From the NCBI GenBank assembly GCA_041675205.1, contig JBAYUF010000003.1:26172-90171 (forward strand): a stretch of 64,000 nucleotides of DNA, written 5' to 3'. Positions 1,828 through 64,000 of this stretch are shown in pieces. This DNA is from Patescibacteria group bacterium (GTDB lineage Bacteria > Patescibacteriota > Patescibacteriia > GWA2-46-9). The position numbers and the translations under genes were made by a program. Below the pieces are notes generated by a model, which worked only from the letters and a program-made list of their open reading frames with translations, was not told the DNA's origin and made no database searches. Within the stretch, counting starts at the first letter, position 1. Every line of letters begins with the position of its first letter.

Positions 1828-4854
<3,027 letters not shown>

Positions 4855-4857
4855 ACT

Positions 4858-5988
4858 ATGTTAGGTGCGTTTCGCGGTCGGGTTGGAAAGTTTGATTGGT
4901 TTTTGGCCTTAGGAATCGTTATTTTGTTAGCGGTGAGTTTGGTTACGCTCTACAGCATCGGTGCGGCACGGTCCGATGGTGATTTTGCTGTTTTCACAAA
5001 GCAGCTCTGGGTGGCGGTTCTCGGCCTCGGTATTTTTATTATTTTGAGTGCGTTTGATTTTCAACTTTGGCAGTGGTTGAGTCGTTGGACATTTTTGGCA
5101 ACAGTACTGCTGTTGTTTTCTACGCTCATTTTTGGCCGCGTTATTAACGGTACGCGTGGTTGGTTGAGTGTAGCCGGATTGCAATTTCAGCCAGTAGAGA
5201 TAGCCAAGTTTGCGGCCGTGCTGGCGCTGGCAAGTTTTTTTTCTCTGCGAGCACGGGAACTTAACCGCACCCGAAATCTTTTACAAAGCGTCACGTTGAT
5301 TGGGCTACTCGTTGTACCTGTTCTTTTGCAACCAGATTTTGGTTCGGCGGCTGTGCTTTTGTCTTTGTGGGTCGGCACGGTACTCGTGATTGGGGTTAAG
5401 CGTCGTTACCTTGTTACGTTAGTTACCGTTAGCGCTGTTATTTTTGGAATTGCCTGGTTCTTTTTATTTGTCCCGTACCAGCGCGATCGTATTCGAACTT
5501 TTTTTGCGCCTAATGCCGATACCGCTGCTAGCTATAACGTTCGTCAAGCGACGATAGCTGTTGGCTCTGGTCAAGTGTTTGGTCGGGGATTAGGGCAAGG
5601 GTCACAGAGTCAGTTGAAATTTTTGCCCGAGGTGGAAACCGACTTCATATTTGCCGCTGTCGCCGAGCAGCTCGGTTTCGCCGGCGTCGTAGTTGTTTTC
5701 GGCTTAATGGGTTTGATATTTTTTCGCCTCTACATTTTACTCAATCGCTGCCAAGACTGGTTTGGCGCCTTCTTTGTTTTGGGGGTACTGGTGCTTTTAA
5801 CCACGGAAGTTTTTGTGAATGCGGGTATGTCTATGGGGCTTATGCCAGTTGTCGGTATTCCCTTCCCATTACTCTCGGCCGGCGGGAGCGCTTTACTCGT
5901 TCATCTGGCGCTATTTGGTGTGGTGGAGAGTATTGCCCGCAGGGAAGGTTCACGAGGGTATCAAGTTTCCCAAGTGGCGTTAGGTTGA
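4858..5988 (+). CDS. SEDS-family peptidoglycan glycosyltransferase (FtsW/RodA)
   Basis: Multi-TM protein with GRGLGQGSQSQLKFLPEVETDFIFAAVAEQLGF... characteristic of FtsW/RodA. Confidence 0.8.
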   Translation: MLGAFRGRVGKFDWFLALGIVILLAVSLVTLYSIGAARSDGDFAVFTKQLWVAVLGLGIFIILSAFDFQLWQWLSRWTFLATVLLLFSTLIFGRVINGTRGWLSVAGLQFQPVEIAKFAAVLALASFFSLRARELNRTRNLLQSVTLIGLLVVPVLLQPDFGSAAVLLSLWVGTVLVIGVKRRYLVTLVTVSAVIFGIAWFFLFVPYQRDRIRTFFAPNADTAASYNVRQATIAVGSGQVFGRGLGQGSQSQLKFLPEVETDFIFAAVAEQLGFAGVVVVFGLMGLIFFRLYILLNRCQDWFGAFFVLGVLVLLTTEVFVNAGMSMGLMPVVGIPFPLLSAGGSALLVHLALFGVVESIARREGSRGYQVSQVALG

Positions 5989-6023
5989 CAGTAAAGTTCA
6001 CATTCGCTAGGCTTTTCGCAACT

Positions 6024-6183
6024 ATGATTATTCGCTTCCAAAATAATTTGCTTCTTAGTCTTCCTCTTCCTCTTACCCTTACCCAGGGTGGAGTGTTGAA
6101 TGGTGTGTAACTTTATTTAAAAGTACCTACCCTTCAGCCCTTCACCACGCGTGAGGGGCTGATTTGTATCCGGAAGGTTTTTT
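6024..6183 (+). promoter_or_regulatory. candidate leuA leader: 28-codon leucine-rich leader peptide (6024-6110) plus attenuator-like hairpins (6136-6183)
   Basis: ATG at 6024 encodes MIIRFQNNLLLSLPLPLTLTQGGVLNGV (8 Leu, 7 of them CTT/TTG within 11 codons). Downstream is a 12-bp stem AGCCCTTCACC/GGTGAGGGGCT, an overlapping alternative pairing CCTTC...GAAGG followed by TTTTTT, then leuA at 6245. Confidence 0.45.
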
Positions 6184-6244
6184 CACAATTGAGCAGTGAG
6201 CACAGGACCATCTGTGAAACAGGTGGTGAGGGAGAGGAAGGAAC

Positions 6245-7861
6245 ATGATTGAAGTGGAACAGAGTCAAGATTACGTTCGGATTTTCGATACTACCTTGCG
6301 TGACGGCGAACAGGCGCCGGGCTGCACCATGGGTGCGCAGGAAAAGGTGCGGATGGCTGCGGTCATCGCCGACTTGGGGGTCAGCGTCATTGAGGCGGGG
6401 TTTGCGGCCGCGCGGGCTGGTGAACCCGAAGCGATTCGGGCAGTGGTTGCGGCAGTGGGTCGTGAATCTAACAGCCCCGTCATTTTGAGCCTGGCTCGGA
6501 CACGTCGAGATGACATCGATATGGCCCTTGCAGCGGTCAAAGATGCTGCGCATCCTGGAATTCACCTCTTCATTGCCACGTCGGAACTTCATCTGCGGGA
6601 GAAGTTGGTCATCCCGTTTGAGGAGGCACTTTCGCAGATGGTCGAGGCAGTGGAGTACGCCAAGCAATTTGTGGGGCACATCGAGGTCTCGGCGGAAGAT
6701 GCGACGAGAACTTCGCCGGATCGTCTGGTGGAATTCTACAAGGCACTGATTCGGGCTGGGGCTACGGTGTGCAACGTTCCCGACACGACCGGCTACGCCA
6801 CCGTGGACGACTACCGGGCGCTTTTTCGGAACTTGCTTCAGCAAGCCCGGGTTTGCGCGTGCAACAAGCGGCGACCATGTCATCACGTGACATGGAGTGC
6901 CCACGTTCATGACGACCTCGGCTTGGCAGTGGCGAAAAGTTTGGCGGCTGTTCAAGGTGGTGCACGCCAGGTCGAGTGTACGCTGCTCGGGATTGGTGAG
7001 CGGTGTGGCAACACTGCGCTTGAGGAAGTGGTGATGGCGCTTGATACGAGACAAGATCGGTTCGGTATCGCCACGCACGTTCATACCACGGGTTTGTGGC
7101 GAGCCTGTCAGGAACTGTCGCAAACCATCGGTTTTCCAATACCCATGAACAAGCCGGTTGTGGGGGCTAACGCCTTCGCGCACGAGGCTGGCATTCACCA
7201 AGATGGTGTTTTGGCAAATCGGGCGACGTACGAAATCATGTCGCCAGCCCGCATCGGTCGGCCCATCGATGAGCTCGTTCTGGGTAAGCACTCGGGTCGG
7301 AAAGGAATCAATGACAGGTTGCGAGCCTTGGGGGTCGACCTGGACGGCGTCGACATGAATTTGGTACTCGAAAGATTCAAGGCGTTGGCCGAAGCAAAAC
7401 GCGGGAGTCATGGCATCGACGACGCTGAGTTGTTGGCGCTACTGGTTGGTCCGAGCGATTGTGAGCGTTTTGTTCTGCGGTCTGCTTTTGGCAGTACTGC
7501 CTTGAACTCTGCGCACCGATCGCCGACGGCTCATGTGTTTTTGGTTGTCAATGGCCAAGAGCATGACCTTGAGCGAGACGGCGACGGCATCATCGATGCG
7601 GCTTTTGCGGCGGTTCAGGACATTACGCACTTGGATCCGCAACTGCTGGATTTTCAACTGCGTACGATTGGTCGGGCCACCGACGCCATGGGTCAAGCCG
7701 TGGTTGTACTTAAGTTGGATGGCACAGTCGTGCGAGGTGTGGGAGTTCATACTGACGTGACGATGGCTGCTTTGGAGGCCTATGTCAGCGGCTTGAACAA
7801 GCTCGAGCGGTTGCGTGAGTTTCGGGCGACGAATGGTCAGGTAACAGAACCGACGCCGTAG
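6245..7861 (+). CDS. leuA: 2-isopropylmalate synthase (LeuA family, with C-terminal regulatory domain)
   Basis: VRIFDTTLRDGEQAPG and HVHDDLGLAVAKSLAAVQGGARQVECTLLGIGERCGN motifs; 538 aa including a LeuA-type C-terminal domain; markedly GC-rich (~60%). Confidence 0.85.
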   Translation: MIEVEQSQDYVRIFDTTLRDGEQAPGCTMGAQEKVRMAAVIADLGVSVIEAGFAAARAGEPEAIRAVVAAVGRESNSPVILSLARTRRDDIDMALAAVKDAAHPGIHLFIATSELHLREKLVIPFEEALSQMVEAVEYAKQFVGHIEVSAEDATRTSPDRLVEFYKALIRAGATVCNVPDTTGYATVDDYRALFRNLLQQARVCACNKRRPCHHVTWSAHVHDDLGLAVAKSLAAVQGGARQVECTLLGIGERCGNTALEEVVMALDTRQDRFGIATHVHTTGLWRACQELSQTIGFPIPMNKPVVGANAFAHEAGIHQDGVLANRATYEIMSPARIGRPIDELVLGKHSGRKGINDRLRALGVDLDGVDMNLVLERFKALAEAKRGSHGIDDAELLALLVGPSDCERFVLRSAFGSTALNSAHRSPTAHVFLVVNGQEHDLERDGDGIIDAAFAAVQDITHLDPQLLDFQLRTIGRATDAMGQAVVVLKLDGTVVRGVGVHTDVTMAALEAYVSGLNKLERLREFRATNGQVTEPTP

Positions 7862-7896
7862 GAGGACGGCGTTAACCGAGAGGGGATTTGAAACAT

Positions 7897-7926
7897 CGGG
7901 GCAGGCTACAGCTGTAGCCTGCCCCG
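7897..7926 (+). terminator. putative terminator hairpin after leuA
   Basis: Perfect inverted repeat CGGGGCAGGCTACAG/CTGTAGCCTGCCCCG followed by AATTCGTTATCTT (weak T tract). Confidence 0.45.
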
Positions 7927-7981
7927 AATTCGTTATCTTGACACCTCACGAGTCCGCTGGTACGGTAGGTCAGTACTTTAT

Positions 7982-8317
7982 ATGCCCATGCACGATTTAG
8001 AGCGGCCGTTCTTTCATGAGGGATTTCGCCTCATGGCTCGCTGTCCTCTGTGTCAAACTCGGTATCAACCGAGCGCCGCAAAGGTGATTGCCGAGCGAGA
8101 AGACGCCTACCTTCTGCACGTGCCGTGCGTAAAGTGCAAAAGTGCCGTTGTGGCATTGATATTCGCAAATATGTTCGGTGTTAATTCAGTCGGTGTTCTG
8201 ACGGATCTAACGAGCGATGAAGTGCTCACGACCGATTCTCAGGCAGTATCCGCTGATGACGTCCTCGCTCTGTATGAGGCAACTACTGGTGGCTCTCTCG
8301 TTAGTCTTGTAACGTAA
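7982..8317 (+). CDS. hypothetical zinc-ribbon protein
   Basis: 111 aa with CPLC...CVKC cysteine pairs; no other recognisable motif. Confidence 0.4.
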   Translation: MPMHDLERPFFHEGFRLMARCPLCQTRYQPSAAKVIAEREDAYLLHVPCVKCKSAVVALIFANMFGVNSVGVLTDLTSDEVLTTDSQAVSADDVLALYEATTGGSLVSLVT

Positions 8318-8324
8318 TTAATTT

Positions 8325-8987
8325 ATGGCAACACGGCAGACATTGTCCGTCCGCACTCGGACGGTTTTTGGTAAAAAGAATGCAGACCTCCGCACCTCGG
8401 GGGTTATTCCTGGTGTTATATATGGACAAGGTGCTGAAGCGGTTAGCGTTTCTGTTACTCGCAGCGTATTTGAAAAGCTTTTTACTGCCGCCGGAGAGAG
8501 CACGTTGATTGACTTAGTCATTGATGAACAGTCGCCAACGGTTGCGCTTATTCATGATGTGCAGCGTGATCCATTGCGTGGTGAATTGGCGCACTTTGAT
8601 TTGTACCGAGTGAACATGAACAAAGCCATTACCGTTACCGTTCCCTTGGTCTTGGTCGGTGAAGCGCCGGTTGTAAAGTCTCAGGGCGCGGTTTTGGTTC
8701 GTGCCATCGACCACGTGAGCGTATCTTGTCTTCCGGCTGATTTGATTCACGAGTTAACCATTGATCTCGGTGGGCTGACCGCCATTGATGACGCTATTCG
8801 TATTGGTACGATTGTTCCGCCGAGTGGCGTCACCATTGAGGGGGACCCTGAAGCGGTTGTCGTTACCGTGCAAGCGCCGAGAGCTGAAGAAGTGGTTGTG
8901 GCAGCTCCAGAAGCCGATGTTACAAAAGTTGAAGTTGAGAAGAAAGGGAAACAAGAAACTGACACTGCCGAGGCAGCGAAGAGTTAA
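8325..8987 (+). CDS. rplY: 50S ribosomal protein L25 / general stress protein Ctc
   Basis: N-terminal L25 domain (MATRQTLSVRTRTVFGKKNADLRTSGVIPGVIYG) plus Ctc-type C-terminal extension. Confidence 0.8.
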   Translation: MATRQTLSVRTRTVFGKKNADLRTSGVIPGVIYGQGAEAVSVSVTRSVFEKLFTAAGESTLIDLVIDEQSPTVALIHDVQRDPLRGELAHFDLYRVNMNKAITVTVPLVLVGEAPVVKSQGAVLVRAIDHVSVSCLPADLIHELTIDLGGLTAIDDAIRIGTIVPPSGVTIEGDPEAVVVTVQAPRAEEVVVAAPEADVTKVEVEKKGKQETDTAEAAKS

Positions 8988-42615: not shown

Positions 42616-43083
42616 ATGGCTACACCAGAAATTAAAAGAGAATACACGGCAACCCCCGAGCAAGAGTTCAGTGAAACTGCTCCGCAAACTATTCCGAGAA
42701 CCGCAGTACCCGATAGCGCTGAGCCCGTGGCGCGCGCGGTGCCGCAACCGGTGTTGGTGCCAATTGTTTCCCCCCTTCAATCAGCACCAAAAAGTCAGAC
42801 ACTGCAAGAGATAGAAACGATTATGGCCGAAGATTTGGCGGGCATATACGCTTCACTTGATGCACCAACCAGAAGCGCCTTAAGGGTGTCTGGAGAGCAG
42901 GCAGCATTGAAGATTAGCATTCTTTTGCAATCAGCCAGTTCGCAATTAATTAAAATTATCAAAATCATTCGCGATTGGTTGCGAACCATTCCGGGCATTA
43001 GCTGGGCTTTTATTGAGCAGGAAACAAAAGTGAAAACAGGTAAGCTTTTGCGTCTTACCGATAAGCACGATAGGTATGAGTAG
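42616..43083 (+). CDS. hypothetical protein
   Basis: 155 aa, Pro/Ala-rich N-terminus; no motif recognised. Confidence 0.35.
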   Translation: MATPEIKREYTATPEQEFSETAPQTIPRTAVPDSAEPVARAVPQPVLVPIVSPLQSAPKSQTLQEIETIMAEDLAGIYASLDAPTRSALRVSGEQAALKISILLQSASSQLIKIIKIIRDWLRTIPGISWAFIEQETKVKTGKLLRLTDKHDRYE

Positions 43084-45607
43084 CTTCCTCCCAGCAGTGC
43101 CAAGTATAAACGAACTCACCGCCACAGTGCTCGTGTGGGGTATGATTAGCGCCGCGACGGCCCTTCTTTTTCTTTTCGTACTCTACGTATTTTATCGCCG
43201 TTTGTATCATACTGGTGCATCGTTTAACAAGGTAACCTTACTCATTACCGTACCAAAGCGTAGTCAGCAGCAAGATGAAGACAGTACGATTGAAAAAATC
43301 CGTCAGCAGATAGCCGTAGCGGAAACATTTTTTGCGGCGATTGCGGGGCTTCGAGCGGACAGAAGCGTTAGTTCCTATGTACTTGGTCGTCGTGACCATC
43401 TGTCTTTGGAACTCGTTGCTTCACAAGGCCTTCTCTCTTTTTACATTGTCGTGCCAGCGTCACTTCGTCGTTATGTTGAACAGCAAATTCATGCGCAATA
43501 TCCTGATGCCAATATTGACGTCGTCATTGAGCCAAACATTTTTTTATCACATGGCGTGGTTCGAGCTGCTGGGCTGCGTTTTCGTCGTTCGTTTATGTTT
43601 CCATTGCGTACGTATAATGATATAGAAACAGACCCCTTAGCGGCTGTAACGAACGCATTTAGTCGGGTGGGTACGAATGGTGCTGCGTTGCAAATAGTTA
43701 TTCGCTCTGCCAAGCGACGATGGCATAGGTTTGGGCAGCGAACGGCAGCTGAATTTCATCAGGGTCACTCATTCCGCGAAGCATATGCCCGTGGTCAGCG
43801 AAGCACCTTTATGCGTGGCGTGTCAGCCTTTATGCGGGCATTTCATAATCAAGCGATGCCAAAACAGCCAGCGGCACAAGCCGAGCAGGTACGGCCACAT
43901 CAACTGTCGGCCCTCGAGCAAGAGATGGCTAAACGGGTTGAACAAAAGACAAGTAAGGCTGGCGTTGAGGCGAACATTCGTATAGTGGTCTCGGCCAGTA
44001 CTGAACATGATGCCGATAGAATGCTTGATAATATGGTGCAAACGTTCAGTCAGTATAACCTTTACCAGTACGGTAACAGTTTCGTTCCCGTGCGAGTCCG
44101 CCGGCAAGTGGCATTCATACGGCGGTTTATCCATCGTCAATTTGTTCGTCGCAATTCGGTAATTCTGAACACGGAAGAGCTCGCCAGTCTATTTCATTTT
44201 CCATTGCCCTCGACCGAGACGCCGAATATTCGTTGGTTGCGTTCAAAGAAAGCCCCGCCGCCAAATGAGTTGCCTGACGAAGGCATAGTGTTGGGTGTCA
44301 ATCGATATCGCGGCGTAGATCGCGTTGTTCATTTTGACCCGGCCGATCGTCGTCGGCACTGCTACATTATTGGTACCACCGGCTCCGGAAAATCAGTGCT
44401 GATGGGGGAGATGGCCAAGCAAGATATTAAGGCCGGGCACGGGGTTTGTATTATTGATCCGCACGGCTCATTGGTTGAAGAAATACTTGAGAGTATACCG
44501 CCGGAGCGAGCCAAAGACGTCATTTATTTTGATCCGTCAGATACTGATCGGCCACTCGGGCTGAACATGCTCGAAGCCACGACGCCAGCCGAAATGGATT
44601 TTGCGACACAGGAAATGATTGCCATTTTCTACAAGCTGGTGAGCGACCCTTCAATGATTGGTCCAATGTTCGAACATAACATGCGTAACGCCATGCTAAC
44701 GCTTATGGCTGACCCGTCGGCACCAGGGACGCTTGTGGAGATTCCCCGCATGTTCACTGACACTGAATTTCAGCGTCGTAAGGTAAAAAATCTAACTGAT
44801 CCGATAGTCAAAGCCTTTTGGGAACAAGAAATGGCCAAGACGTCAGACTTTCACAAATCGGAAATGCTTGGGTATCTCATTTCAAAAGTTGGTCGATTCA
44901 TCGAGAATGCCATGATGCGAAACATCATTGGTCAGCCGAATTCGGCTTTTGATTTCCGTCGCGTTATGGATGAGAAGAAGATTTTTCTTGTGAATCTTTC
45001 AAAAGGAAAAATTGGAGAAATGAATGCGAATTTATTGGGCCTTATTATTGTTTCTAAGCTGCAAATGGCCGCGCTGTCTCGGGCTGACTCTCCGGCCGAT
45101 TCATTTCCCGACTTTTATCTTTACATCGATGAATTTCAGAACTTCATCACGGATTCGATTGCGACGATTCTTTCTGAAGCTCGAAAGTACAAGCTCAACC
45201 TTGTTATGGCGCACCAGTACGTTGGTCAACTCGTCCAAGGACAGGATACAAAAATTCGCGATGCGGTATTGGGGAATGTGGGTACGATAATTAGTTTTCG
45301 GGTGGGCGTTGAAGATGCTGAGGTTTTGGCCAAAGAGTTTGCTCCGGTCTTTAGTGAGTACGACCTGATTAATGTTGATCGTTATCACGCCTACGTTCGA
45401 CTATTGGTCCACAATAGTGTCACCCGGCCGTTCGACATAGACACCTATCCGCCAACTATTGGTTCTGCCGAACGGGCACTTTTACTTCGTGAAGCATCAC
45501 GGCTTCGCTACGGTAAAGATCGGCAGTCGGTTGAGAATGACATTCTTCTGAGAAGTAAAATTGGCCAGCTGGGTGTTACAAATGCGGTCGACGGGCCAGC
45601 ACGATAG
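43076..45607 (+). CDS. membrane-anchored VirD4/TraG/TraD-like (DUF87-type) P-loop ATPase
   Basis: N-terminal TM helix; Walker A YIIGTTGSGKSV, DPHG, Walker B LYIDEFQNF, plus blocks typical of type IV coupling / HerA-FtsK-like ATPases. Confidence 0.5.
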   Translation: MSSFLPAVPSINELTATVLVWGMISAATALLFLFVLYVFYRRLYHTGASFNKVTLLITVPKRSQQQDEDSTIEKIRQQIAVAETFFAAIAGLRADRSVSSYVLGRRDHLSLELVASQGLLSFYIVVPASLRRYVEQQIHAQYPDANIDVVIEPNIFLSHGVVRAAGLRFRRSFMFPLRTYNDIETDPLAAVTNAFSRVGTNGAALQIVIRSAKRRWHRFGQRTAAEFHQGHSFREAYARGQRSTFMRGVSAFMRAFHNQAMPKQPAAQAEQVRPHQLSALEQEMAKRVEQKTSKAGVEANIRIVVSASTEHDADRMLDNMVQTFSQYNLYQYGNSFVPVRVRRQVAFIRRFIHRQFVRRNSVILNTEELASLFHFPLPSTETPNIRWLRSKKAPPPNELPDEGIVLGVNRYRGVDRVVHFDPADRRRHCYIIGTTGSGKSVLMGEMAKQDIKAGHGVCIIDPHGSLVEEILESIPPERAKDVIYFDPSDTDRPLGLNMLEATTPAEMDFATQEMIAIFYKLVSDPSMIGPMFEHNMRNAMLTLMADPSAPGTLVEIPRMFTDTEFQRRKVKNLTDPIVKAFWEQEMAKTSDFHKSEMLGYLISKVGRFIENAMMRNIIGQPNSAFDFRRVMDEKKIFLVNLSKGKIGEMNANLLGLIIVSKLQMAALSRADSPADSFPDFYLYIDEFQNFITDSIATILSEARKYKLNLVMAHQYVGQLVQGQDTKIRDAVLGNVGTIISFRVGVEDAEVLAKEFAPVFSEYDLINVDRYHAYVRLLVHNSVTRPFDIDTYPPTIGSAERALLLREASRLRYGKDRQSVENDILLRSKIGQLGVTNAVDGPAR

Positions 45608-60274: not shown

Positions 60275-60339
60275 TTTTTCCCGTTCAGGTACGTCGTGAA
60301 TAGTGGCGGTAGGATCTTTAAATATGGTATAGTAGTGCC

Positions 60340-60555
60340 ATGTTTTCCTTTTTTCAATCATTTCATAGCCGAGTTTCAAGACTCGATTTTTGGGACATTA
60401 AATTAGTAGGCACCGCTGGTCTCCTAGTTGGTTTTTTGCTGGGGCGATTTTGGCCAGCGTTGTTGGATGTGAGTCCATGGTGGTGGCTGACGTTGTTTCT
60501 TCTGGTAGTTGCGAGGCCAACGTATCACTACTGGATTGAATCAAGTCAGTCGTAG
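60340..60555 (+). CDS. small membrane protein
   Basis: 71 aa, two hydrophobic segments. Confidence 0.3.
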   Translation: MFSFFQSFHSRVSRLDFWDIKLVGTAGLLVGFLLGRFWPALLDVSPWWWLTLFLLVVARPTYHYWIESSQS

Positions 60556-60565
60556 TATTCGCACA

Positions 60566-63500
60566 TGAATCAGAACGGGTCAGTAACACAAGAAGTACTG
60601 AGCGGGTGGCAGCAATTGCTGGAACACCCGGTTCGTATGGGCATCCTTTTGGGGGTGCTCATCGTCGGTATTTTTTTAAACGGGGTTCCCTTTAGTCGTG
60701 GTGGCGCTCCGTCGACGTTTATTCAGAGCAGTTGGACTGGTGGTGTGCGGGCTTCAGAAATTACAGGCGGGAACAGCTCAACCACGTATGCGTCAGTAAC
60801 GAATCTGACTGCCGCGGCAAACGTACAACTTACTTCAAGTGGTGGCAGTCGTACACACACAACTCAGGCAGATTTTGACGGAACGAAAACTGGCACAACA
60901 GTTCTGAGTGGCGGATCAGTTGTACTTGATGGCGATACTTCGTGGGTGAATAAAAGTTTTCCGGCGGGCGTTACGCTTGGAGACGGGGCGACAATGGCCG
61001 CTGCACCGTGCAGCAATAACGCCGGCGTTTCAAATTGTCTCTATGTCTTCATTGGTGGGCTCTCTAAAACTCTTTTGAAGTACGACACCATCACTGCTTC
61101 TTTTCCAGCGGCGCAGCCGCCTAGTTTTGGTGTCGGAAGCAACACGAATCCTGTAGGGGTCACCCTTGGTGCCACTATGACCTATGTGCGTGTTGGCAAT
61201 AATGATTTCATCTACGCCAGTAATGGGGGTGGTAACCTTTATCGCTATCTCATCGGTGGGAGCACGTGGGAGAAAATGAAAAACCCGAATAGGCAAGTGT
61301 CGCGTGGAGGCAGTTATGTTTGGAATCAGGGTACGAAGATTTATCACATCAGTGGTGGTAACACGAACAATTTTGAAGTGTATAACACCGCGACGGATAA
61401 TTGGTCGAATCTTACTGGCCCTGGCGGTGGTCTATTAATTCCCGACGGAAGTACTGCCGCTTTTAATCCGATAGATGGGTACCTGTACGTAGCGCTTGGC
61501 GGAACGCAGCGAGTGTATCGCTATAACCAGAGTGTTTGGGATAGTGGCTATGCAACGGCACCCCATGTTTTTAATGTCGGCAGCAGCATGGCGGTTGCTG
61601 ATAATTTTTCCGGTGGCAATCCAAGTAAACTAGTGTTCACACTTTCTGGGGGAACAGCGTCGACCAGTAACGCTCTTGCCATGAGGAACGCCTCTCAAAC
61701 TTGGGTGTCTGCCGGTCCGGTGCTCGGCGCCTCTAACGGTGGAGCGTTGGCCTACACTTCGTCAGCACGAACATTCTTTGCCTTTAAGGGTACGGGGGCA
61801 ACGACATTTCAACAGCTGAAAGTTGTTCCGTCGTCTGCTACATACACCTCGAAATCGATTGATTTTGGAGCACCGCAAGCGTATACAACGGTCAATCTTG
61901 ATATAACCGGTACGGGGGTTACAACTACGTTTGAAATACAAGGAAGCATAGACAACACGAGCTGGACTGCGTATAAGAATATCCCACTAGCAGCAGGTAT
62001 AAGTGGTTCGATTGCCGTTACCGAAACACAAGGTTATCGCTACCTTCGATATCGCATAACGTTGACCCCTGATCTGACCACGACCATTACGCCAGCATTT
62101 GAGGTGCAACGAGTGGCCTTGAACTATGCCGGTTATCAACTGGCAGGCTCGCTTGTTTCTACACCGTATAAAATGGGTGTCGCCACCGACGCGCCTGCTA
62201 TTAAAAGTATTGCGTGGCTAGAATCTATCCCTGCAGCCAGTGCTTCTAGGGTCGGTTTACAGCTGCGCACGAAGGCTGGCGCAACTTTTGGTAGTGACGA
62301 GTGGTATGGTCCAACGAACGAATCGGGACAGATATTTTACTCCACTGATCCGTCGTGCCAGCGCAACGCCTCGGGAGCGGCCTACCGAGTTACTTGCACA
62401 GTCCAACCATCGAGCCGACTAAATGATACTGGGGTAACGCACTTCCAATATAATTTACTACTGGAGTCAGATGGTAAAACGACGCCGACCGTTACAAGTG
62501 TCGAAGTAACCTATGGTACCAACTCATCGCCAACGGTTACTGTAAAGAGCGCCAGCCAGGACAGCAGTGGTACGTTTACGGTTGAATATACTGTTACTGA
62601 CGACGACGAGAGTGCATTTGATGTGGGCTTGTTTTACGACAGAGGTATAACGCTACTTGGTCAGACGGACGCCGCTTCCGGTGTAATCACTGTGGCAAGT
62701 GAGACAAGCTTAGCAGCCATAATGCCGAATGAAGGGGTTATCGCTATAGGGGACGAACAAATTGTCTACGAGGGCATAAGTGGCAACTCATTTCTGACAA
62801 GTGAATCAAATCGAGGTAGTTTCCAAACAACTCCCGCAGAGCATGCCAAGGATGAAATAGTCTGGATTCGGGCGGCAGACCAGCAAATGTCTAATCGTGG
62901 GCTGAATGTGATTGTGGCCGCAACCGGAAACGTAGGTGCCAGTGGAGCACTTTGTGCAAAACAAACAACGTGCACTAAATCTATTTCTTGGGTTCCAAAA
63001 ACTGATGTGGTTGGCGAAGCCTATGCGTCTTCTTCTAATATGCTCCGGGTGCTCATTAACGACATACAAGCAACCCGTAATGTTGGTAGCGCCGAACTTG
63101 CTTCTTCCATTACGCTCGATACAAAAGCCCCTGTACTTGTTGCTGATTCAATTACTTTAGTTGGTTCCAGTGTGTCCACAACAACAACAGGTTTTAAAAC
63201 TAATAGCCAAAATGTTTTATTGGCGATTTTGCCGCCTGACTCAACAGGGGATAACAGTGCGAGTCTCAATAAGTACTCGATTTGCGTTGATACACCAAGT
63301 AATCAAACGTGCGGCACACCATTAGCTTCTGTATTGCGAAGTGGTAGCTTACTTTGGTCTCAAGCCGTTAGCTTTTCTACGAACACCTCTTGCCCGGGTG
63401 GGGCTGATGCTGGTGCAGGGTGTCGCGCGTGGACGTTACCGACAACGGGTTATGTAACCATTCATATGGCGGCGATTGATGACGTTGGCAACATTCGAGG

Positions 63501-64000
63501 TAAACGGGAAAAGAGCATTATGGTTGACAAGACCGCACCGCCCTCAATTGCTCAATTTGCGGGGCAGGACGCGTCGAACAACAGCGTTGGTAAACTCATC
63601 TATCTTAGTTGGCAGGCCTTACAGGCAAGTGCGGTTCAAGACGCCTCAGGCGGAAGCGATTTCACTGAGTTTCAGATTTATCGAAACAATCTTTCTGGCT
63701 GCGCAACCCCAGCAACATTTTGTCTGTTGACGACGCTTACCAGTTTGAACGCGACCAGTCACGCCGATTCAAATAATCTTGATGCTAATACTTCATATCA
63801 ATACAAAATTCTTGCTACTGACAACATCGGTAACGTTTCTTCCACCTTAGCCGCCGCACCAACCACAGCGCCCATCACACCAAATCCAACCGGGCTCGAG
63901 GTACCTCCGCCACCCGTCATTTCAAGCGCGCAAGTTGTTTCTTTTTCTACGAATTCAGCAGTTATTAGTTGGAGTACGGGAACAACAGACGCCGACGCAA
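60566..64000 (+). CDS. giant cell-surface protein (partial, >1140 aa; 3' end beyond window) with beta-propeller/Kelch-like and Ig/FN3-like repeats
   Basis: ATG at 60566 opens a frame with no stop through to 64000, hand-translated: MNQNGSVTQEVLSGWQQLLEHPVRMGILLGVLIVGIFLNG... It is absent from the ORF track because it has no stop inside the window. N-terminal TM followed by Gly/Thr/Ser/Asn-rich beta-repeat sequence (e.g. IYHISGGNTNNFEVYNTATDNWS). Confidence 0.6.

Follow-up and report, generated by a model that had tools for sequence, protein, structure and literature searches.

A probable leucine-responsive attenuator ahead of a lone, foreign-looking leuA gene in Patescibacteria

Why would a bacterium with a streamlined genome carry a single gene of leucine synthesis and keep a run of leucine codons in front of it? 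The question arises from a 64,000-nucleotide stretch of the metagenome-assembled genome of a Patescibacteria group bacterium (GTDB Patescibacteriota; Patescibacteriia; GWA2-46-9; GenBank assembly GCA_041675205.1, contig JBAYUF010000003.1, positions 26,172 to 90,171 of the forward strand), hereafter the window, in which a solitary leuA follows a short, leucine-rich open reading frame (ORF). Patescibacteria, or Candidate Phyla Radiation (CPR) bacteria, are regarded as deficient in most amino-acid biosynthesis and as regulating their genes very little. Control of leu genes by leader-peptide attenuation is textbook biology, and an earlier note on the window, made from the sequence alone, had proposed the ribosome-mediated form of it for this locus. 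Our literature search, the coverage of which was incomplete, returned no report of leader-peptide attenuation in CPR bacteria and nothing relevant on isopropylmalate synthase, leucine or attenuation in Patescibacteria, CPR or Uhrbacteria. Based on the comparative and folding analyses presented here, we consider it likely that a ribosome-mediated, leucine-responsive attenuator controls a monocistronic leuA cassette.

Five independent but related sequences with leuA at the same site were compared: the window, L003, L012/L013 (Ca. Uhrbacteria CG10, GCA_002793855.1), L010 and L015. L003 carries the nearest LeuA (P0002, 67% identity to that of the window), and the other relatives were collected by an FtsW search followed by locus look-up. 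The gene order ftsW-[leader]-leuA-hypothetical-rplY is common to L003, L012/L013, L010 and L015, with an additional gene separating ftsW from the leader in L010. Protein identities among these genomes are 55-80% for FtsW and 42-78% for L25, encoded by rplY. The comparison also took in L016, an empty site where ftsW is followed directly by the hypothetical gene and rplY; L014, a relative without leuA in which other genes occupy the ftsW-rplY site; and L017, a non-CPR locus encoding the LeuA P0098. The window region is identical (0 mismatches) in an independent Logan assembly (L002), and a 180-kb ENA metagenome contig (ERZ27247358 k141_2283382) encodes the same LeuA.

The leader ORF had been described in the earlier note as containing eight leucines, seven of them within 11 codons and all encoded by CTT or TTG, and the sequence bears this out (CTT six times, TTG twice; Table 1). 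The window contains 317 short ATG ORFs of 20-40 aa, all six frames considered, and no other among them reaches seven leucines in 11 codons. The conservation of the ORF, which that note had left to be checked, is evident: the ORF and its leucine run are kept in four diverged relatives. ATG-initiated leaders of 25-28 codons (25-26 in the relatives) with 6-10 leucines are present in all five leuA loci (MTYDKLQLSLGLLLLTLSRGGVLNGA in L003, MKFYQSTISLLLPLLTPTRGGELSRA in L012, MYRLQSLTLLPLSLLTPRKGEELSCA in L010 and MHKLSNNLLLLNLLLLTKDGELTCA in L015), and those of the relatives stop at the same point of the RNA structure as that of the window. Leucine accounts for 41 of the 131 leader codons over the five genomes, compared with 9.4% in the proteome. 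The N-terminal residues vary freely, while the run is maintained using all six codons (CTT, CTC, CTA, CTG, TTA and TTG). CTT is not a rare codon but the commonest leucine codon of the window genome (22.5%). Leader leucine codons are skewed toward CTY (26/41 vs 41% expected, P = 0.003). Another small ORF, starting at a TTG at 6190 and ending at the leuA ATGA, was rejected as a candidate, since the corresponding TTG of L003 reads in frame into leuA and a separate ORF is therefore not conserved.

Transcription of the leader would begin a few nucleotides ahead of its ATG, which lies 10 nt past the -10 hexamer of a promoter-like site. Sites of the form TTGACA/C-N17-TAnnnT also stand 10-15 nt ahead of the leader ATG in L003, L012, L010 and L015, and in each leuA locus the site starts at the end of the preceding gene. 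Those of L014 and the non-CPR L017 fit with one off position. The window site was not listed by a consensus promoter scan because its -10 hexamer matches at only three of six positions. No leader among the five has a Shine-Dalgarno sequence, and the leader transcript probably has a very short or absent 5' untranslated region. As a separate observation, TTGACA-N17-TAnnnT sites recur at gene-cluster boundaries (window 5985-6013 and 7938-7966; L016 ~6148-6176), which suggests that strong sigma-70-type -35 boxes occur in this CPR lineage.

Two helices that compete for one strand follow the leucine run. The last eight leader codons form the 5' arm of the first, an interrupted helix in which the stop codon (UAA, 6108-6110) is paired in the apical stem. 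The same helix occurs in every relative (dG -25.2 to -28.6 kcal/mol for the five leuA leaders, -21.7 kcal/mol for L014) and was given, unprompted, by RNAalifold as the consensus of six sequences. Alignment A3 gives 91.4% paired cells for this helix, compared with 35-50% for slid partners, and five pairs are changed on both sides (e.g., A-U/U-A, A-U/C-G and U-A/C-G). The second is the 12-bp stem that the earlier note had recognized, although it begins ~25 nt (24-26 nt) past the leader stop codon rather than 70 nt, and its arms had been typed slightly off. It comprises 12 pairs, including one G-U, and a 5-nt loop (AGCCCTTCAC-CACGC-GTGAGGGGCT). Its 5' arm lies inside the 3' arm of the upstream helix, such that strand 6133-6146 is used by both. 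A hairpin with a U tract is found at the equivalent position in all five sequences (dG -14.1 to -23.3 kcal/mol), the tract being UUUGUAU in the window and L003 and a canonical U run in L012, L010 and L015. Covariation is evident here too (83% of cells paired vs ≤62% when slid; five compensatory pairs), a figure obtained despite a one-column misregister of the L003 and L015 rows. Region 6000-6250 folds better than its shuffles (z = -4.1), and a covariance model of the core (R1) scores 78-107 bits in all five leuA loci. In a search of the window and nine loci, R1 found no second copy in the window and no match in the empty site L016; weak extras were terminators or reverse strands. The non-CPR leader of L017 was not matched by R1 either.

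On these grounds, we assign the 6134-6162 hairpin as the predicted terminator and the 6087-6146 helix as its competitor, the predicted antiterminator. The core of the earlier proposal, i.e., an attenuation layout with ORF, leucine run and switch, thus holds in four relatives, but its anatomy does not, as it had taken the competitor to lie downstream, with CCTTC (6139-6143) pairing to GAAGG. The latter is at 6173-6177 rather than 6172-6176, while the TTTTTT that follows is indeed at 6178-6183. The window could form this pairing, but the relatives do not conserve it: L003 has GAAAG (a C·A mismatch), and CCGGAAGG is absent from L012, L010 and L015. Segment 6170-6195, which contains these motifs, is near-identical in L003, the CCGGAAGG insert being limited to the window and L003, and is possibly a second termination point. 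An ACAAYTGA-like motif is located 15-25 nt past the terminator in the window (6185-6192), L003, L012 and L010. Scanning the genome and metagenome contigs for the pattern CCCTTCAGCCC-N(8-30)-GGGCTGATTTG recovered only unrelated terminators (Clostridiales, Desulfogranum and bioreactor contigs).

These comparisons bear on two rival accounts of the region. One is that there is no regulatory unit at all: the hairpin and T tract would terminate ftsW, the ORF would be due to chance, and leuA would merely have an ordinary strong ribosome-binding site. A terminator is the default reading of a hairpin and T tract 3' of a gene, and short ORFs are, as seen above, common in the window. However, the promoter-like site separates ftsW from the ORF at all loci; the L010 element follows a different gene yet stays with leuA; and the empty site L016 has no such element 3' of ftsW. 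The leader core is also ~90% identical between the window and L003, against 63-70% nucleotide identity for coding DNA, the antiterminator covaries, and the leucine density of the ORF is unique (1/317). The comparative data already contradict this account, and we regard it as extremely unlikely. The other is that the RNA senses a ligand or tRNA (a riboswitch or T-box) instead of a ribosome. Its conserved, structured 5' region with a terminator/antiterminator pair and a strongly negative fold z-score would suit such a sensor, but a cmscan of 5800-8400 with E up to 10 gave no Leu_leader (RF00512), leu/phe leader, T-box (RF00230) or riboswitch match, only spurious miRNA/sRNA models. Moreover, neither a specifier loop nor a T-box sequence is present, the helices are simple stems that lack a conserved unpaired core, and the conserved ORF and leucine run would be left unexplained. 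Hence, a ligand- or tRNA-sensing RNA is very improbable.

The geometry is consistent with the ribosome-mediated attenuator. In the five genomes, the leucine run ends 6-13 nt ahead of the antiterminator 5' arm, and the stop codon lies 21-30 nt ahead of the terminator 5' arm. When leucine is plentiful, the ribosome would reach the stop codon at the antiterminator tip and cover the 5' arm, whereupon 6134-6145 would pair with 6151-6162 and transcription would end. When charged Leu-tRNA is scarce, it would stall within the leucine run, short of the 5' arm. The antiterminator could then form once 6120-6146 emerges, and the polymerase would continue into leuA. Constrained folding of L012, L010 and L015 follows this scheme, with no terminator pairs when a ribosome is placed at the first leucine codon of the run and 11-14 when it is placed at the stop codon.

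The earlier anatomy had also omitted a pairing between the leucine run and the leuA ribosome-binding site. In the minimum free energy (MFE) structure of the window RNA, the base stem joins 6060-6072 (CUUCCUCUUCCUC) to 6229-6241 (GAGGGAGAGGAAG), the CU-rich core of the run serving as the anti-Shine-Dalgarno strand, and the pairing of the run with the purine-rich tract appears in the full-length MFE structure of all five sequences. The predicted duplex of the window run with leuA positions -40 to +3 (-29.9 kcal/mol) greatly exceeds those with 59 other gene starts (-8.5 ± 3.65 kcal/mol, minimum -17.6). Corresponding values for leuA in L003, L012, L010 and L015 are -26.7, -17.6, -31.8 and -15.4 kcal/mol, and in all five genomes the leuA duplex is stronger than that with every other gene start of the locus (means -6 to -13). 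According to a partition-function model, the probability that leuA positions -15 to -5 of the window are unpaired is 0.01 without a ribosome. Placing the ribosomal A site on codons 11-19 raises it to 0.21-0.54, and moving the ribosome to the stop codon brings it back to ~0. Opening is similar in L012, L010 and L015 (0.24 to 0.5-0.7 with a ribosome on the run), i.e., it is predicted in four of five genomes including the window. The full-length RNA would hence provide a second layer of control, in which leuA is translated efficiently only while a ribosome occupies the leucine run. Both arms act in the same direction in the models, and the balance between them appears to vary from lineage to lineage.

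How does this arrangement compare with known systems? Like enterobacterial leuL (RF00512) and the trp, his, thr and ilv attenuators, it has a short ORF with a codon run for the pathway amino acid, a terminator hairpin with U tract ahead of the first structural gene, and an alternative helix that shares a terminator strand and, in the model proposed here, would be selected by ribosome position. Unlike leuL, the window leader has no sequence or structure match to RF00512. It also departs from the classical four-strand 1:2/2:3/3:4 design in having three strands that make up the antiterminator and terminator: the stalled ribosome would leave the antiterminator free, whereas in the classical design it frees strand 2 by covering strand 1. 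A four-strand layout with this hairpin as 3:4 was considered and rejected, as nothing downstream is complementary to 6151-6162. Further differences from classical attenuators are the lack of a Shine-Dalgarno sequence with a probably near-leaderless start, the use of the common CTT rather than a rare codon, and the presence of a single gene rather than leuABCD. In the translational attenuation of erm and cat genes, a ribosome stalled on a leader ORF disrupts a helix that hides the downstream ribosome-binding site. The modelled opening of the window site from 0.01 to ~0.5 is comparable, although the stall signal would be a shortage of charged tRNA-Leu rather than an antibiotic acting with the nascent peptide, and the site pairs directly with the regulatory codons.

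A further published likeness is the actinobacterial LEU element (Seliverstov et al. 2005, PMC1262725), which has an upstream ORF with a leucine run whose codons pair with the leuA Shine-Dalgarno box as a base stem. The window element shares the leucine-run ORF and the compact structure closed by such a stem. Compared at the level of that description, the LEU element contains a pseudoknot or alternative hairpin and no obvious terminator, whereas the interior of the window element is a covarying antiterminator and terminator with a U tract. Its hosts are Actinobacteria, whereas the window host belongs to a different phylum and the nearest LeuA relatives are named Limnocylindrales or Binatia. Similarly, Corynebacterium glutamicum cg4015 encodes a small peptide with consecutive leucine codons ahead of a stand-alone leuA and was interpreted as an attenuator (PMC4046766); the window resembles this and similar actinobacterial leaders, as they are described there, in its leucine-codon peptide before a lone leuA.

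The likeness to the LEU element raises a third alternative, namely a riboregulator for which the leader need not be translated. The structured RNA, with its base stem and internal helices, would be recognized by a protein or another factor governing leuA translation, and the leucine-rich ORF would be incidental to the CU-rich strand. It would fit the published element, for which the authors preferred protein binding in view of the leucine-codon mutations in Streptomyces (PMC1262725), and it draws on the strength and specificity of the base stem in all five genomes, on the lack of a Shine-Dalgarno sequence in the leader, and on the fact that the window terminator forms at equilibrium irrespective of the ribosome. 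On the other hand, the ORF is kept open in five genomes, as well as in L014 and L017, and its start and stop hold a fixed register to the promoter and helix although its N-terminal codons vary. Leucine is also encoded by TTA, TTG and CTG, which are useless for pairing with purines (e.g., TTA TTA TTA in L015 and CTG CTG in L017). Furthermore, a covarying terminator/antiterminator pair is present here, while the LEU element lacks one, and no candidate regulator gene is located nearby. We therefore consider such a riboregulator unlikely.

Several observations nonetheless weigh against the ribosome-mediated attenuator. The window U tract (UUUGUAU) is imperfect. In constrained folding, the equilibrium nascent fold of the window and L003 keeps the terminator at any ribosome position; their hairpin is more GC-rich, their antiterminator has a U·C mismatch, and region 1 is able to engage the inner part of region 2 even as the hairpin forms. 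Since the terminator forms in the window regardless of the ribosome, the transcriptional switch there would have to be kinetic (antiterminator first) or weak, which is the chief reservation. In L003, moreover, the modelled ribosome leaves the ribosome-binding site closed. Without a Shine-Dalgarno sequence, translation of the leader would depend on the putative near-leaderless start. A CU-rich sequence selected for pairing would itself give Leu, Pro and Ser codons, and a portion of the leucine enrichment could be a by-product of pairing. Mutations of leucine codons in the Streptomyces leuA leader, as cited in PMC1262725, did not behave as in classical attenuation. The sample comprises only five sequences, which are mutually related, and the whole case is in silico: the sequence elements, conservation, covariation, energies and geometry are established directly, and transcription start, stalling, termination and regulation are inferred from them.

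Table 1. Features of the leuA locus, in window coordinates
Feature	Position	Strand	Description
Promoter-like site	5985-6013	+	TTGACA 5985-5990 (overlaps ftsW stop codon), 17-nt spacer, TAGGCT 6008-6013; putative function
Leader ORF	6024-6110	+	28 codons, MIIRFQNNLLLSLPLPLTLTQGGVLNGV; no Shine-Dalgarno sequence upstream
Leu-codon run	6048-6080	+	Codons 9-19: TTG CTT CTT agt CTT cct CTT cct CTT acc CTT; proposed stalling site
Predicted antiterminator helix	6087-6146	+	5' arm 6087-6114, 3' arm 6120-6146; 24 pairs, dG -26.5 kcal/mol
Predicted intrinsic terminator	6134-6169	+	Hairpin 6134-6162 (UCAGCCCUUCAC-CACGC-GUGAGGGGCUGA, dG -20.9 kcal/mol), then UUUGUAU 6163-6169
Post-terminator segment	6170-6195	+	CCGGAAGG, TTTTTT 6178-6183, CACAATTGAGCA
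Purine-rich tract	6222-6244	+	GGTGGTGAGGGAGAGGAAGGAAC; contains leuA Shine-Dalgarno sequence; 6229-6241 pairs with Leu-codon run
leuA	6245-7861	+	538 aa, divergent 2-isopropylmalate synthase; HMGL-like, HCS_D2 and C-terminal LeuA_dimer regulatory domain
Hairpin after leuA	7896-7927	+	14 bp, GC-rich, weak U tail; probable end of leuA unit
Second promoter-like site	7938-7966	+	TTGACA-N17-TACGGT, for hypothetical gene and rplY

The earlier note had further suggested from its GC richness that leuA was acquired horizontally, possibly together with its leader, and had remarked on its isolation. Both features were confirmed. The GC content of leuA is 0.576, compared with 0.496 ± 0.020 for other genes, and its GC content at third codon positions (GC3) is 0.622, compared with 0.462 ± 0.036 for the 59 other genes, ranking 1/60. 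The gene is an outlier relative to its neighbours in every host, with a GC3 of 0.60-0.71 vs 0.34-0.50. It is also solitary, with FtsW/RodA encoded upstream and a hypothetical protein, then L25, downstream, and leuB, leuC, leuD and ilv genes were found neither in the 64-kb window nor in the ~8 kb beyond its start. The GC3 values, the empty-site relative and the leucine-rich leader with terminator in L017 all support acquisition. It should be added that leuA GC3 is high in all five hosts although these are deeply diverged, which may reflect either repeated gene replacement or a maintained composition.

Clues to the source come from the LeuA proteins. Those of L012, L010 and L015 share 68-77% identity with LeuAs that bear the names Limnocylindrales or Binatia, and are nearer to these than to one another (63-73%). 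For example, P0098 of the non-CPR locus L017, whose host has 63% GC, is 77% identical to the L015 protein. The gene order in L017 is ilvN-ilvC-psd-pssA-[gap]-leuA-truA, and the gap contains a near-leaderless leucine-rich ORF (MVSYVYKALAGLLLLRCPSGVSPVV) whose stop codon falls at the apex of a long hairpin, as well as a canonical terminator. The five CPR LeuAs formed one clade in 0/100 bootstraps of a neighbour-joining tree; however, the window/L003 branch is very long and the topology is not trusted either way, hence the tree speaks neither for nor against one acquisition event. A single acquisition is argued because synteny is shared and the leader is homologous. Given the leucine leader of L017, a leucine-leader-controlled leuA appears to have been transferred as a unit and to have diverged afterward. 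The donor would have been a GC-rich, non-CPR lineage already using a leucine leader, and the cassette (promoter, leader, leuA and terminal hairpin) would have entered 3' of ftsW, ahead of the native promoter that serves the hypothetical gene and rplY. The second promoter-like site of the window, which would be this native promoter, matches the promoter-like site found 3' of ftsW in the empty site L016.

The enzyme itself is full-length with a regulatory C-terminal domain, as previously stated; all three expected domains were found (Table 1). Of the citramalate, homocitrate and isopropylmalate synthase roles suggested in the earlier note, the best model match of the window LeuA favours 2-isopropylmalate synthase, yet it passes NF002086 narrowly (552.1 bits, cut-off 532) and falls below the TIGR00973 cut-off (511 vs 598.7), whereas the L012 and L015 proteins are above the cut-off in both. 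The closest solved structure is 3RMJ. Together with the L003 protein, the window LeuA departs from 41 relatives at 42 of the 188 columns that are conserved at ≥97% (e.g., HxHND to HxHDD, AN to AK, and TINGIGER to TLLGIGER). Both also have a Cys-rich insert of 9-10 residues just ahead of the HxH motif (CACNKRRPCHH in the window, CRCWDKRVPCEH in L003; residues ~200-256; L003 gene at 2263-3894). The residues that we take to be metal ligands, namely D20, H220, H222 and N256 (34 residues past the second His), are retained. Judging from its sequence, the window LeuA is probably an active synthase of the LeuA family whose specificity is somewhat uncertain, and it may have an altered specificity or a new metal site. 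That the leucine leader has been retained points to a role still linked with leucine.

In sum of its parts, the element is a new sequence family, without an Rfam match, of the known leucine-leader kind, in which both predicted layers of control are combined on a lone foreign leuA. If correct, this would mean that transcription and translation are coupled in CPR cells, that these cells monitor their own leucine supply via the charging of tRNA-Leu, and that one acquired biosynthetic enzyme is worth tight regulation. It would also offer a natural example of a leader whose regulatory codons themselves hide the ribosome-binding site, linking classical attenuators with the unexplained actinobacterial LEU element. 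The question is thereby sharpened to the role of LeuA: the other pathway genes may be located elsewhere in these genomes; alternatively, the cells may exchange 2-isopropylmalate, or something related that the divergent enzyme makes, with a host.

The same scaffold was also detected without leuA. In L014 (5135-5289), R1 scores 50.9 bits (E 3e-7), with the antiterminator helix noted above and a hairpin followed by U6, but the leader peptide (MNNQIQNLWFNLYLFVSRRVDG) is not leucine-rich, and the element precedes a gene of the AstE/AspA family (the aspartoacylase model scores only 31.7 bits). This suggests that the attenuator scaffold is modular and has been re-used for other genes. Rather more speculative, and in our view doubtful as a whole, is a wider picture for this Uhrbacteria-related lineage, in which a modular, near-leaderless scaffold is re-used with different leader peptides for different acquired metabolic genes, leuA is under coupled transcriptional and translational control through sensed codons that double as the anti-Shine-Dalgarno strand, and the lone, divergent LeuA, compositionally foreign in every host, serves something other than a complete leucine pathway, such as a metabolite hand-off with the host cell.

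The window otherwise holds housekeeping genes of the kind typical of CPR bacteria, including secE-nusG-rplKA, gyrB, ftsW/rodA, rplY, prmC, prfA, rpmE, rpsB, tsf, glycolysis genes, mraZ-mraW-ftsI-mur, hrcA-grpE-dnaK-dnaJ, cysS and metK. An Rfam scan of the whole window at gathering thresholds returned three tRNAs and no other family. Several minor features were observed. An ORF at 32820-34151 has a transposase domain of the IS110/IS116/IS902 family (PF02371, E 5.6e-7) and is preceded by a stretch (~31.3-32.8 kb) with no ORF of at least 100 aa. The gene at 43076-45607, which adjoins cysS in a housekeeping region, encodes 843 aa with domains of type IV secretion coupling proteins (TrwB/TraG/VirD4-like). 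The final 3.7 kb (60300-64000), which have no Rfam match at the gathering threshold, are unusually gene-poor for a streamlined genome, with no ORF of at least 100 aa on the + strand and just one (61030-61347) on the - strand. Lastly, a terminator-like hairpin (CCGTCCGCACTCGGACGG followed by TTTTTGG) is located at 8342-8365, ~20 nt inside the 5' end of rplY.

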